Source: a virus (lineage: Duplodnaviria; Heunggongvirae; Uroviricota; Caudoviricetes). Taken from it: DNA of 4,726 bases. Of the stretch, positions 1 to 4,240 are shown piece by piece (the stretch's first letter is position 1; the number at the start of each line of letters is the position of its first letter). Where the stretch lies: the IMG/VR virus record IMGVR_UViG_2671180846_000006; one strand, written 5' to 3'. Made by a program: the position numbers and the translations under genes. Below the pieces are notes generated by a model. It was not told the origin of the DNA and did not search any database. It saw only the letters and a list, made by a program, of their open reading frames with translations.

Positions 1-215
1 TGCCACAACCGGAAGCGCACGTTCGAAGAAATCTAACGACAAGCCTTCTAAGGGAAAGAGCTTCGCCGTACGCTTTCGCGTTATGCCCTGACTTTTCAGG
101 GAAATATCCTTTCAGTAAACTGTCAGTACCGGATTCTTATCCGTGTCCGGCGCACGACCACACGTGACAGCGTGTTGGTCTCCATTTTTAACCCAGAACC
201 TCAATGGAGGATAAA

Positions 216-425
216 ATGCCAAACAAAAAAAGAAATCCGCTTATTGAAAAACAGATTGAATGCCTGGTAAATCAACTCAGGCAATCAGGGTTATTAAAAA
301 CTCATTCAGAGTTGAGGCTCACAGAATCAGCATTCGACGATAAATTAAATAATGTCCTTTATAATGGCATTATTGATTTTAATCGTTCTGTTGGTCGCCG
401 CGGCCCTGCTGGTGTTTCCTTATAA
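216..425 (+). CDS. Hypothetical small protein, 69 aa from the ATG at 216 (73 aa if from the in-frame ATG at 204)
   Basis: Only ORF on either strand across 204..425. GGAGGA at 206..211 sits 4 nt upstream of the ATG at 216. AT-rich codon usage like the adjacent 216-aa ORF. Stop TAA at 423..425 directly abuts the stop of the convergent minus-strand ORF. No family recognised by eye and no clear promoter upstream. Confidence 0.4.
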   Translation: MPNKKRNPLIEKQIECLVNQLRQSGLLKTHSELRLTESAFDDKLNNVLYNGIIDFNRSVGRRGPAGVSL

Positions 426-1064
426 TTACCAGTCAATCCAGAGTGGACCGTGTTCAGCGTAAATATAACTGTACACATCCAGATTATATTTGTGGTCTGT
501 TAAGAACAGGCCGCAAATACATGCCGAAGCTTCCAGTGCAGCGGCTCTGTTACTGAATAACCATGTAGCAACATTCCAGCGTTTTTCTGCATCCCAGTCT
601 TTCTCAAGGCCTGATACCATGAAGAAACCGTTAGTGTTGCCATCAAATAATTCTGTTTCCAAATTTTTAAGCAATGCCTGATGGACTCTTGCCAGGTATT
701 CCGCCGGAATTTCGCCACGAATTCTAATGAGATTGTCATAAACAAACATGTTCCCCGCATATGGCGATTTTTCTTTCTTGTTTTTTAAACCAGCATCATG
801 AGCAAACTGATCAATTTCTTCTTCCGTTGGTTTCGTATTGATGTTTTGCGCTGTCGTTTCTGCAATTTTATTTGCCATACTCTCTGAGTCGTGTTTATTT
901 ATAGACGCACAGAAATACAATCCGGTAAACGCATCGCGCACATTACGAGCCATATTATCAGTGTCTTTTTTCGTTACCGATTCCAATTCAAGTTCGTTCA
1001 GACGATGACGAAGTGTGTGTGCTGCAATCTCCTGGATTGAAGGAGGTAAATCTTTAAATTCCAT
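426..1064 (-). CDS. Hypothetical protein of unknown function, 212 aa from the ATG at 1064 (216 aa if from the ATG at 1076)
   Basis: Long uninterrupted minus-strand ORF. The ATG at 1064..1062 is preceded by GAGGT with a 5-nt spacer; the alternative ATG at 1076..1074 overlaps the upstream small ORF's stop (TGATG) but has no Shine-Dalgarno. Predicted hydrophilic, with no Walker, HTH or nuclease motif recognisable by eye. Low G+C compared with the replication genes. Confidence 0.7.
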   Translation of the reverse strand: MEFKDLPPSIQEIAAHTLRHRLNELELESVTKKDTDNMARNVRDAFTGLYFCASINKHDSESMANKIAETTAQNINTKPTEEEIDQFAHDAGLKNKKEKSPYAGNMFVYDNLIRIRGEIPAEYLARVHQALLKNLETELFDGNTNGFFMVSGLEKDWDAEKRWNVATWLFSNRAAALEASACICGLFLTDHKYNLDVYSYIYAEHGPLWIDW

Positions 1065-1075
1065 CGTCAACCTCA

Positions 1076-1228
1076 TCAGTCAGTGTTTCTGGCTAACCAG
1101 CGACGCGCGCCAGCTTCAGTTTTAAACGTTTTGCTTCTGGTATACGTCATCGCGGTAAACGTGCCGTCCAGGTTGGAGAATACTCCGCATACCAGAGATT
1201 CGTTGTTGCCAAGATTGAGCGTATCCAT
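1076..1228 (-). CDS. ydfA: YdfA-like small protein (about 50 aa)
   Basis: Translation MDTLNLGNNESLVCGVFSNLDGTFTAMTYTRSKTFKTEAGARRWLARNTD. GAGGT lies 4 nt upstream of the ATG at 1228..1226. It is the first gene downstream of the DicA-like repressor, as ydfA is in K-12 Qin, and I recall the K-12 protein as similar (from memory, not searched). The ORF track's 76-aa version (to 1306) would run through the operator and promoter region and has no ribosome-binding site. Confidence 0.65.
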   Translation of the reverse strand: MDTLNLGNNESLVCGVFSNLDGTFTAMTYTRSKTFKTEAGARRWLARNTD

Positions 1229-1305: not shown

Positions 1306-1334
1306 AGATTAGCCATGACTAACAATTTGGTCAA
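1306..1334 (-). promoter_or_regulatory. Putative sigma70 promoter for the ydfA-led operon (PdicB-equivalent)
   Basis: On the minus strand: -35 TTGACC (plus coordinates 1334..1329), 17-nt spacer, -10 TAATCT (1311..1306). An operator copy sits inside the spacer. Hexamers were found by eye; the -10 is only a moderate match. Confidence 0.4.
1309..1324. promoter_or_regulatory. Operator-like site O1 (TTAGCCATGACTAACA), presumed DicA-like repressor binding site
   Basis: 16-bp imperfect palindrome (TTAGC-CATGA-CTAA core). It lies in the spacer of the putative minus-strand promoter. The same 16-mer recurs at 1344..1359 (one mismatch) and, inverted, at 1853..1868. Confidence 0.55.
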
Positions 1335-1343
1335 GTATTTTTG

Positions 1344-1359
1344 TTTGCCATGACTAACA
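1344..1359. promoter_or_regulatory. Operator-like site O2 (TTTGCCATGACTAACA)
   Basis: 15 of 16 identical to O1, same orientation, centres 35 bp apart, just upstream of the putative -35. Confidence 0.5.
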
Positions 1360-1371
1360 TTTTGGGCAACC

Positions 1372-1403
1372 AAAAAGATAACGCATTGATTGCGTTATCT
1401 TTT
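1372..1403. terminator. Bidirectional intrinsic terminator-like hairpin at the 3' end of the DicA-like gene
   Basis: Perfect 9-bp stem GATAACGCA (1377..1385) / TGCGTTATC (1391..1399) with a 5-nt loop, extendable by A:T pairs. Flanked by AAAAA (1372..1376) on one side and TTTT (1400..1403) on the other, so it reads as hairpin plus U-tract on both strands. The stem includes the dicA stop codon (1395..1397). Confidence 0.5.
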
Positions 1404-1802
1404 GTTTGTTCGTTGACGGGCTTTTAATAACTCTTCAAAGAGTTTGTTGAAATTTTTTACTCGGGCGCGCATCTCGGTGAGCTGAGCATCCTGTTCTGAT
1501 TCAGGCAATGCATTAAAAAGCTCAAGGAGCTCATGTTCTTTGGGGGATAGAGCAACTGGCTCCTCAATAGGTGGTGATGGCTGCTTGTCTTCATCGCCAA
1601 ATAGAATCCATGTTGGCGAGCACTGCAGTACTTTGCTGAGGGCAAAAAGATTCTTTCCTGTAGGTTCGCTATCATCCCGCTCCCATTGTGAAACCGATAC
1701 GTGAGAAATTTTCAGGACTTTAGCAAGAGACCTTTGGGTGTATTTGAGGTTTTTTCGGCGATATCTAATGCGTTCGCCAATGGTTAAATTTTTTGTATCC
1801 AT
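1395..1802 (-). CDS. dicA: DicA-like prophage repressor (XRE-family HTH, CI analog, 135 aa, no C-terminal S24 peptidase domain)
   Basis: Translation MDTKNLTIGERIRYRRKNLKYTQRSLAKVLKISHVSVSQWERDDSEPTGKNLFALSKVLQCSPTWILFGDE... has an N-terminal XRE-type helix-turn-helix (QRSLAKVLKISHVSVSQWE) and a length and sequence I recognise as K-12 Qin DicA-like. Divergent from a Cro-like gene and flanked by repeated operators. Confidence 0.88.
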   Translation of the reverse strand: MDTKNLTIGERIRYRRKNLKYTQRSLAKVLKISHVSVSQWERDDSEPTGKNLFALSKVLQCSPTWILFGDEDKQPSPPIEEPVALSPKEHELLELFNALPESEQDAQLTEMRARVKNFNKLFEELLKARQRTNKR

Positions 1803-2113: not shown

Positions 2114-2547
2114 TCACGGAAGCATTCTGGGCTCTGAAAGAACGCCCGAACATCGATGTTCAACGCATCACGTTTAATGATGGCGAGGTTGATCAACGGG
2201 CACTGGGCGTTAACCGGGTGAAGATATTCGAACGCTGGAAGGCTATCGACACCAGGGATAAGCGTGAAAAATTCACGGCGCTGATTCCGGCAATTATGGA
2301 GGCTATCCGGATTAGTGATTTCAGGTTGTACCGCGAAATTACTGACGGAAAAAGCATTACGTACATGATTGCCGGGTTAAACAAAGAATATGGCGATGTG
2401 GTGGAGTCCGGGCTGCTTTTTGCAGATCCAGCTGTTGTGGAACGTGAGACAGACGAGCTTATAGAAAAAGCAATCGCTTTCAAGCGTGCCTATCGTCACC
2501 AGTACCAACAAAAAGCCGGATGGAATTATGAGCCTTCTTTTTGCTGA
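2105..2547 (+). CDS. Probable YdaT-like protein (CII-functional-analog family), 5' end lost in the N-run
   Basis: This frame is open from the gap to TGA at 2545..2547. The visible 147 aa (...KIFERWKAIDTRDKREKFTALIPAIMEAIRISDF...ELIEKAIAFKRAYRHQYQQKAGW) resemble what I recall of Rac/CP-933P YdaT, and the gene sits in the CII position after the Cro analog. The ORF track's GTG start at 2218 is unlikely to be real because the frame is open upstream. Family assignment is from memory. Confidence 0.5.
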
Positions 2548-3493
2548 ACGCCCGCTGGTTATAAACACACAGCTGGCGATGAAGATTGGTTTAAACGAAG
2601 CCATTGTGTTGCAGCAACTGCATTACTGGTTGAGGGATACCAGTTCCGGCATGGAATGTGATGGCGTTCGCTGGATTTACAACACAACGGAACAATGGCT
2701 GGAACAGTTTCCGTTCTGGTCAGAGTCAACGTTAAAGCGTGCGTTTGCAAGTCTGAAAGCGCTGGGGCTTTTGCGTAGCGAAAAGCTCAATAAATCGAAG
2801 CGTGATATGACTAATTTTTACACAATTAACTACGATAGCGCGCTTTTAGATGATGGCAAAGTGAACGAATCCATCGGGTCAAAATGCGCCACTCCATCAG
2901 GTCAAAATGACACGATGGAAGAGGTCAAAATGAAACGTTCCATTGGTTCAAAACGGCCCAATGTCATCAGGTCAAAATGGCCCGATGATCCTACAGAGAA
3001 TACAACAGAGAATACAACAGAGAATAAAAAACTCTCTTGTCCGGACGCTTCGCAACCGGACGAGTTGACGGCTGAACAGGCGTTTTTAACCCGCCATCCT
3101 GATGCAGTTGTGTTCAGCGTGAAAAAACGCCAGTGGGGAACCCGGGAGGATTTGACATGTGCGCAGTGGATCTGGGGGCGGGTTGTAAACCTGTACGAAC
3201 AGGCTGCCAGTGACGATGGTGAGATCACGCGACCGAAAGAGCCCAACTGGACGGCGTGGGCCAATGACGTGCGCACAATGCGGATGCTGGATGGAAGAAG
3301 TCACAGACAAATTTGCGAAATGTTCAGCCGGGCACAACGGGATCCGTTCTGGATAAAAAACATCAAGAGCCCGGAAAAACTCCGTGAGAAATGGGATGAA
3401 CTGGTTATTCGACTGTGGCGTGGTCCCGCGCAGCGTTGCGTGAATCATATTTCTGAACCGGATACCGAAATTCCGCCGGGTTTCAGGGGGTAG
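2528..3493 (+). CDS. Phage replication initiator (lambda O-like replisome organizer) with iterons inside the coding sequence
   Basis: 322-aa ORF from ATG 2528 (MSLLFAERPLVINTQLAMKIGLNEAIVLQQLHYWL...); the track's 335-aa version starts at GTG 2486 with no ribosome-binding site. N-terminal winged-helix-like domain, then a low-complexity linker encoded by direct repeats, then a C-terminal domain. Immediately followed by a DnaC-like gene. Overlaps the upstream ORF by 20 nt. Confidence 0.75.
   Translation: MSLLFAERPLVINTQLAMKIGLNEAIVLQQLHYWLRDTSSGMECDGVRWIYNTTEQWLEQFPFWSESTLKRAFASLKALGLLRSEKLNKSKRDMTNFYTINYDSALLDDGKVNESIGSKCATPSGQNDTMEEVKMKRSIGSKRPNVIRSKWPDDPTENTTENTTENKKLSCPDASQPDELTAEQAFLTRHPDAVVFSVKKRQWGTREDLTCAQWIWGRVVNLYEQAASDDGEITRPKEPNWTAWANDVRTMRMLDGRSHRQICEMFSRAQRDPFWIKNIKSPEKLREKWDELVIRLWRGPAQRCVNHISEPDTEIPPGFRG
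2872..2979. repeat. Iteron array: 4 good copies and 1 degenerate copy of CATCAGGTCAAAATG at about 23-bp spacing (putative ori)
   Basis: Core GGTCAAAATG at 2877, 2900, 2923 and 2970, with a degenerate GGTTCAAAACG at 2945. The 15-mer CATCAGGTCAAAATG is identical at 2895..2909 and 2965..2979; 2872..2886 differs at one base. Located in the linker of the O-like gene, the classical lambdoid origin position. Confidence 0.6.
2994..3029. repeat. 12-bp tandem repeat ACAGAGAATACA x3 (third copy imperfect), encoding TENTTENTTEN
   Basis: Directly visible perfect tandem copies at 2994..3005 and 3006..3017, and an imperfect copy at 3018..3029. In frame within the O-like ORF. A-rich, followed by AAAAAA, immediately downstream of the iterons. 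Confidence 0.9.
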
Positions 3494-3499
3494 CGCATC

Positions 3500-4240
3500 A
3501 TGAAAAACATTACGTCAGGTGGTGTTCTGGCAAGAGTCAGCAGATTTGTGCCGCAGGATGCAATCCCTCCGTACCGTACGGTGACGGAGTGGCGGGAATG
3601 GCAGCTTGCTGAAGGGCGTAAGCGAAGCGAGGAGGTTAATCGTCTGAATCATCAGACGCGGGTTGAAAAAATCATTAACCGCTCCGGTATCCAGCCGCTT
3701 CACCGGAAGTGTACGTTCGGTAACTACCGGGTGCAGAACGATGGTCAGCGCCATGCCCTGAGTCAGGCGAAATCCATTGCGGCAGAGCTGGAAGGCGGCT
3801 GTACGAATTTTGTTTTCAGTGGCAGGCCTGGCACAGGAAAAAACCACCTGGCGGCGGCTATTGGCAACCACCTTCTGGCGAAAGGTCGCAGTGTGATTGT
3901 GATAACAGTGGCGGATGTGATGCTGGCGTTACATGGCAGCTACGACAACAAAAACTCGGGCGAAAAATTTTTGCAGGGATTGTGTGGCGTTGACCTGCTG
4001 GTACTGGATGAAATTGGCATGCAACGGGATACGCGTAATGAGCAGGTCACGCTGAATCAGATTGTTGACCGCAGAACGGCATCGTTACTCAGTGTGGGGA
4101 TGCTGACAAATCTTAACCATGCAGCGATGAATACACTTCTCGGCGAGCGGGTGATGGACCGCATGTCCATGAACGGTGGTCGCTGGGTGACGTTTAACTG
4201 GGAGAGCTGGCGTCCGAACGTCAGCCAGCACAGGAACTGA
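3500..4240 (+). CDS. DnaC-like helicase loader (IstB-like AAA+ ATPase)
   Basis: 246 aa with Walker [16 protein letters not shown] and Walker [14 protein letters not shown] lies 9 nt upstream of the ATG at 3500. Starts 6 nt after the O-like stop, the usual O/P-type pairing. Confidence 0.85.

Follow-up and report, generated by a model that had tools for sequence, protein, structure and literature searches.

Comparative analysis demonstrated, at the level of sequence, that a 69-aa open reading frame in the early region of a lambdoid prophage is a genuine phage gene under purifying selection. It converges on a 212-aa gene so closely that the two stop codons abut. On balance, and with modest confidence, we think that it is part of a conserved convergent module within a read-through operon, that it would have its own transcription and be expressed reciprocally with its neighbor, and that its product may act on the protein which carries the conserved C-terminal domain of the pair. 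The layout as such is ordinary for lambdoid phages; the gene pair itself was previously uncharacterised.

Position of the gene pair in a DicA-controlled early operon

The window, i.e. the complete stretch of 4,726 nt that was analysed, matched in megablast searches the lambdoid prophage adjoining rspB in E. coli O26:H11 11368 and in many O157, O111 and O26 STEC. It is the immunity/early region of a DicA-type (Qin/lambda-type) prophage of STEC. On the minus strand the order is: a dicA-type repressor gene (1395..1802), operators, a ydfA-like DUF1391 gene as the first of the early-left operon (1076..1228; both genes by domain match and PGAP), the 212-aa gene (big gene, 426..1064), the antisense of the 69-aa ORF (small gene, 216..425, plus strand), DicF and dicB. 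Beyond dicB, DUF1482, exonuclease, xis and int follow on the same strand to the left of the window. The plus strand carries, rightward, dicC, a YdaT-like gene, an O-like replication gene with iterons, a DnaC-like gene and DUF1627. DicA operator half-palindromes, TTAGYCATGRCTAA, were found at four sites (1309, 1344, 1805 and 1855) versus 0.36 expected. The operator motif search thus placed two DicA operators at the early-left promoter, the dicBp equivalent (1309..1357); the sites at 1805 and 1855 (region 1805-1868) are in the dicA/dicC intergenic region. These sites define PL-like and PR/PRM-like control regions. No DicA operator was found close to the small gene in the operator search of the window. 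The DicF sRNA is located at 5826-5877 (minus strand) of locus L001, 124-175 nt left of window position 1 and 549 nt past the stop of the big gene, and is followed by dicB. Its Rfam score was 75 bits versus a gathering score of 48. Within positions 1-430 of the window no Rfam covariance model matched at E ≤ 1. A weak STnc100-like match in L001 (5619-5828; 34.7 bits) was below its gathering score.

In K-12, DicF and DicB are obtained solely via RNase III/E processing of the polycistronic RNA from dicBp, a DicA-repressed promoter upstream of ydfA, and no internal promoter was found (PMC10448788). The arrangement in the STEC prophage is that of a Qin-type dicBF operon: DicA and its operators are followed by ydfA and, further along the same strand, by DicF and dicB. 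This showed that the big gene sits mid-operon in the DicA-repressed dicBp early-left unit and is embedded in read-through. An earlier note on this DNA had missed that the big gene is not the end of a transcription unit; the dicBp operon runs on across the small-ORF antisense to DicF/DicB. With the K-12 Qin operon this region shares repressor, operators, ydfA, DicF and dicB, and its flanks are 85-87% identical: in BLASTN, positions 1-156 matched K-12 at 85% and positions 1085-1900 at 87% identity, with no match between. The difference is that in this phage a mosaic cassette (157..1084) with the big and the convergent small gene takes the place of ydfB-ydfC, which K-12 Qin carries on the operon strand.

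At positions 419-433 the window reads CCT TAT AAT TAC CAG. The small ORF stops with TAA at 423-425 on the plus strand and the big gene at 428-426 on the minus strand; together they form a TAATTA junction (423..428) with zero intergenic bases. Direct reading of both ORFs therefore bore out that the two stops abut without a spacer, as the earlier note had it. It had also seen no hairpin with a U-tract between the genes, and this was corroborated: a site scan of the window found no terminator-like site near 380-480, the region 385-470 did not fold better than shuffled sequences (z -1.4 and -1.3 on the two strands) and no U-tract was found at the junction. With neither spacer nor intrinsic terminator the geometry forces the 3' ends to overlap as antisense if both genes are transcribed, just as had been proposed. 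The GC palindrome GCCGCGGC, correctly placed at 387-394, codes for RRG within a conserved tail motif of the small protein; as a DNA symmetry it was not retained in remote homologs. The junction lacks a terminator because the early transcript must cross the small-gene antisense for DicF, DicB, exonuclease, Xis and Int; an intrinsic terminator at this point would prevent expression of DicF, DicB and the genes for recombination and excision. In composition, plus-strand RNA past the small-gene stop is mildly richer in C than in G (ratio 1.1-1.7), a weak hint compatible with Rho termination. For minus-strand RNA past the big-gene stop this ratio is at most 1.07; such RNA, not being C-rich, is compatible with read-through, again as a weak hint.

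Terminator-less abutting stops are ordinary lambdoid operon architecture and already known. In lambda, sieB (34482..35036, plus strand) abuts N (complement 35037..35438) inside the PL operon. There as here, an opposite-strand accessory gene is located in a repressor-controlled early-left operon, and the stops abut without a spacer or terminator. In addition, a remote homolog of the small protein, P0188, occupies the sieB-like slot of a Rac-type prophage, i.e. the position of Rac sieB. The proteins themselves differ. SieB is a membrane protein of 184 aa, whereas the small protein has 69 aa, is predicted to be a soluble two-helix hairpin and has no sequence or fold relation to SieB; moreover, the partner here is not N. 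Neither SieB homology nor a membrane protein was found for the small protein in Pfam, NCBIfam or the predicted fold.

Several other features of the window were noted. Positions 1-156, upstream of DicF, are more than 85% conserved among Qin-type prophages including K-12, and it is probably here that the dicF precursor has its structures for RNase III/E processing. By likeness to K-12, an RNase III site would be located near window position ~14. Between the 3' end of dicA and the dicBp operators lies an inverted repeat of 13 bp without mismatches, with an A-run on one side and a T-run on the other (1373-1403). From its sequence it looks like a bidirectional intrinsic terminator; any plus-strand transcript from the small gene would meet its first strong stop there. 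Five 23-nt iterons (CATCAGGTCAAAATG..., 2872-2987) and three 12-nt tandem units (ACAGAGAATACA, 2988-3029) are inside the O-like replication gene (2486-3493); presumably this is the phage origin, as in lambda O. In the dicC/YdaT-like region 52 N (2053-2104; masked or a gap) cut off the ORF calls.

The small gene and its leader

The plus-strand ORF at 204..425 codes for 73 aa from ATG204 and for 69 aa from ATG216. ATG204 sits within the Shine-Dalgarno sequence GGAGGA (206..211, 4-5 nt ahead of ATG216), and PGAP as well as all homologs start at M216; therefore, the true product has 69 aa (WP_001133037.1). With 49 ORFs of 30 aa or more in the window, the size of the ORF by itself is not beyond chance; the comparative evidence is. 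Among 10 distinct DNA alleles from 13 loci the dN/dS ratio (Nei-Gojobori) was 0.03-0.27 in frame, with dS up to 0.64, and exceeded 1 in both other frames. The phrog_4274 family HMM matched the small protein at full length (residues 1-69 of 69, E = 1.2e-51). When 1.8 billion representatives were searched exhaustively with an HMM, only four further, remote relatives came up, P0186-P0189. These retain the helical core, with the pattern QI(E/D)C..QL.QSGLLK.PS(D/E)L...F..KL...GI..(F/Y)N, and two of the four also have the tail GRRGPAGV.L or a close variant. In the AlphaFold model (pLDDT 76) helices at residues 8-24 and 37-61 are followed by a disordered basic tail (GRRGPAGVSL). In the INPHARED phage collection tblastn gave no match, though the family exists in PHROGs. 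The strong GGAGGA site described beforehand was confirmed, and the ORF is coding. The protein had been called unrecognised; this stands as far as Pfam, NCBIfam and fold identity are concerned and does not stand for PHROGs, as the protein belongs to phrog_4274. That the ORF is a spurious open frame might be suspected from its shortness and from the lack of a Pfam family; yet the homologs, the PHROG family and the optimal Shine-Dalgarno sequence speak against it and the dN/dS ratios refute it, so that its probability is negligible.

In the 90 nt ahead of ATG216 three stem-loops were present in all lineages. Hairpin 1 (CCGGAU...GUCCGG, 128..151, plus strand) has a stem of 7-8 bp whose sequence does not vary among 10 leaders (E. 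coli, Salmonella and Cox-type elements); it contains a U.G pair which favours the plus-strand RNA. Hairpin 2 (GACCACACG-loop-CGUGUUGGUC, 156..180, plus strand) keeps its stem in four different sequences, ACACG/CGUGU, CUCCAC/GUGGAG, UUCCCAAC/GUUGGGAA and UCCCGAC/GUCGGGA, each with -5.6 to -14.3 kcal/mol; between L022 and L027 an A-U pair is replaced by G-C in a double change. Hairpin 3 (180..210, plus strand) pairs CUCCAU (180-185) with AUGGAG (204-209) and was obtained with RNAalifold in 10/10 leaders. It is predicted to sequester the Shine-Dalgarno sequence; in L021b the latter is reached by a different pairing. Hairpin 2 with a T-run was considered as a plus-strand terminator or attenuator and dismissed, because the T-run is not conserved.

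A putative -10 element, TAAACT (116..121, plus strand), with a weak -35 TTTTCA at 93-98, would place the start of transcription at the base of hairpin 1. In four upstream contexts unrelated to one another, a -10-like hexamer occupies the same register (-12..-7 ahead of GCCGGA): E. coli has TAAACT, the Salmonella locus L009 TGgTATAAC, L022 TGaTATATC and L027 TGaTATAGG. The putative promoter is weak. In E. coli it agrees with the consensus at 4/6 + 4/6 positions, in the other contexts the final T of the -10 is absent, and it was under the threshold of the consensus scan. A further promoter-like site at 188-217 was discarded since its start would fall inside the ORF.

The leader hairpins accompany the small gene into the Salmonella element and the Cox-type elements, which are without dicF. 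K-12 has hairpins 1 and 2 but no plus-strand ORF, and the two may have their role in the dicF precursor RNA of the minus strand instead. This raised the question whether the plus-strand transcript is chiefly an antisense or structured regulatory RNA directed at the early operon, or a part of dicF precursor processing, with the ORF being incidental. The conservation of the upstream hairpins and their presence in K-12 without the ORF would fit such a role. However, purifying selection is strong and specific to the ORF frame, and peptide motifs are kept at about 40% identity; we regard this explanation as very improbable.

Pairing of the two genes across mobile elements

The minus-strand ORF at 426..1076 has 216 codons; from the PGAP start at 1064 the big protein has 212 aa ('Ybl81', WP_000394548.1). 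The family HMM of phrog_2151 covered it completely (residues 1-212 of 212, E = 4e-147). It consists of a variable helical N-domain and a conserved alpha/beta C-domain of ~110 aa, encoded by roughly 429-760, with the motifs NMFVYDNLIRIRGEIP..YL, FDGNTNG.F.VS and W.FS..AA.E. The structural model was mediocre (pLDDT 67). The N-domain is common to phrog_1363, 9419, 6937 and 33007 as well, and in sister Qin-type prophages the N-terminal ~50 aa are joined to other C-termini. The big protein is a polymorphic early protein with swappable C-domains. As separate observations, residues 1 to ~70 (window 857-1064; MEFKDLP...RDAFTGLY) correspond to an N-terminal stretch of ~50-70 aa in at least five PHROG families with unrelated C-termini; the N-domain was also met in L003, L020, L021 and L009, and the Salmonella locus L009 has a second paralog of it ~1.3 kb off.

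As a close pair we took a homolog of the big protein at 67-99% identity with a convergent 69-aa ORF, zero spacing and the identical junction. With the exception of L013 it was present in every examined complete genome or contig with a close big-protein homolog, together with several different repressors; the sample of loci consists largely of close, partly clonal relatives. It was also present in a Salmonella enterica element which has a Mu-type repressor beside its integrase. Of 5426 complete E. coli genomes, ~594 (~11%), mostly STEC, have the intact pair. Beyond the close pairs, the 64-aa relative P0187, in a Cox/repressor/integrase element, converges with a 53-nt overlap on a 220-aa protein with an unrelated N-terminus; the C-terminal part of the latter aligned to the big protein (hhalign 98.6%, E = 1.3e-15). 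For P0189 the overlap is 11 nt, with a protein of 294-307 aa which has another architecture including an inserted HTH, and which again carries the C-domain of the big protein (hhalign 98.1%, E = 7e-14). The pairing therefore persists at 29-45% identity in three types of mobile elements and is always 3'-to-3', with 0, 11 or 53 nt of overlap. This demonstrated, by sequence comparison, that the conserved association is between the small protein and the ~110-aa C-domain as a tail-to-tail module. The earlier note had suggested checking whether the two ORFs co-occur in other genomes; they do, even in such distant relatives and in other element types.

The two genes are not always coupled. In L013-type alleles codons ~1-55 of the small ORF are lost and the big gene is otherwise intact; its stop is lost too, as TAATTA is changed to TTTAAA and an FKG tail is added. 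Such an internally deleted small ORF next to an intact big gene was counted in 14 complete genomes versus the ~594 with the intact pair. Conversely, in L007 the big gene is N-terminally truncated with the small gene intact, and in L024 (Rac-type, sieB-like slot) and L025 a small homolog occurs where the big domain is missing. In L013 a 211-aa gene with Cys-rich motifs (3299-3934, minus strand) was seen inserted between the leader hairpins and dicF.

In sister prophages the same leader, RBS and ATG serve other plus-strand small ORFs (L003 2616-2801, L004 2616-2810, L020 ~1190-1432, L021 1168-1296), which are separated from the opposite gene by spacers of ~180 nt or have other overlaps. They comprise 61-80-aa CxxC...CPxH zinc-ribbon-like proteins (phrog_10133), a 64-aa protein (phrog_4987) and a 42-aa ORF. 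Across from the early operon, the small-gene site is a slot for variable cargo. It can be compared to phage morons, accessory genes that are transcribed independently within a late or early operon and usually have a promoter and a terminator of their own. The slot resembles them in bringing its own signals for expression, with one RBS and start serving different small ORFs; unlike morons, the small gene has no terminator and is tied to a specific opposite-strand domain.

A serious rival reading is that the two genes are merely tightly packed, i.e. unrelated neighbors in a compact mosaic genome whose spacing and co-occurrence reflect linkage and common descent. The occurrence of each partner without the other and the unrelated ORFs housed in the slot at ~180 nt fit with this, and so do recombination breakpoints within the big gene (L002 versus the window). 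Even the invariance of the junction, TTGTAATTACCAG in 13/13 sampled loci with the close pair, Salmonella included, and absent from the decayed L013 allele, is accounted for by codon constraints (Leu-stop / stop-Trp). On the other hand, the association outlasts divergence to 29-45% identity, three element types and N-domain swaps of the big protein, and the 3' ends always touch or overlap; persistence of this kind is unusual for unrelated neighbors in mosaic phages. We give packing alone a low but appreciable probability.

Function of the pair and its significance

Pfam, NCBIfam and PADLOC gave nothing meaningful for both proteins and two of the sister small ORFs; the defence-component HMMs of PADLOC-DB v2 yielded zero families for either of the pair. 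Neither protein was identified by PDB sequence, in fold space or in BFVD, and in these searches nothing in structure or family membership connected the two. The literature searched did not mention the accessions, Ybl81 or the phrogs, and the supplements of the Sakai RIBOseq contained no sequence match.

The earlier note had considered a toxin/antidote or exclusion module, in which one product is toxic or abortive and is neutralised by the other as a protein or as antisense RNA. In the prophage type I toxin-antitoxin loci txpA/RatA and bsrG/SR4 convergent transcripts overlap at their 3' ends. The pair resembles them in its tail-to-tail orientation, the missing terminator, the prophage location and the 3' RNA overlap which is forced if both genes are transcribed; the conserved linkage of two genes on prophages and a position equal to that of lambda sieB and Rac sieB (L024) likewise suit such a module. 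The difference is that here both partners code for conserved proteins under protein-level selection. A small hydrophobic toxin was not found and neither partner is non-coding, given the protein-level purifying selection on the small ORF. One toxin-like candidate, a strongly hydrophobic 36-aa ORF (352-462, plus strand) in the +1 frame of the small gene and spanning the junction, was ruled out as a type I toxin by its lack of conservation: in Salmonella it is without an ATG and has radical changes, and the off-frame dN/dS exceeds 1. As to type II systems, the genes are convergent and form no co-directional bicistron, and Pfam, NCBIfam and PADLOC detected no toxin or antitoxin domain. A type II toxin gene is not kept without its antitoxin, yet an intact big gene persists in 14 complete genomes whose small ORF is deleted, and the small gene is kept where the big one is truncated (L007) or absent (L024, L025). 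With no database match, convergent genes and each partner persisting alone, this proposal gained no support; we consider it improbable.

We return to the reading which we favour, a real gene in a conserved convergent module. The small gene would be transcribed on its own from the weak putative promoter just upstream of the three-hairpin leader, and hairpin 3, by masking the Shine-Dalgarno sequence, may gate its translation. Its transcription would belong mainly to the state in which DicA represses the early operon. Once dicBp becomes active, head-on transcription through the small gene and its promoter would shut it off, so that the two genes would be expressed reciprocally. Most likely, the small protein would act on, bind or modulate the C-domain protein. 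A bolder version, which we advance tentatively and consider rather unlikely to hold in full, is that the two-helix protein and the C-domain constitute an unrecognised two-component phage module, built as a tail-to-tail either/or switch with a Shine-Dalgarno-masking translational gate. If true, the small protein would be made in the prophage state and the big protein in the induced state. For example, a lysogen-made inhibitor might restrain an early host-takeover or anti-defence effector whose variable N-domains are aimed at different hosts or partners.

DicF and DicB affect cell division, metabolism and phage resistance and, in EHEC, virulence regulation. The cassette lies between the promoter and dicF in about 11% of complete E. 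coli genomes. The pair is a clean natural case for convergent-gene interference combined with a Shine-Dalgarno-sequestering leader, and its remaining interest is that an uncharacterised pair of convergent genes, deeply conserved and with a structured leader, lies on the DicF/DicB path in many STEC. Any transcription from the small gene opposes, head-on, the sole route by which DicF and DicB are known to arise, and could tune their leakiness.
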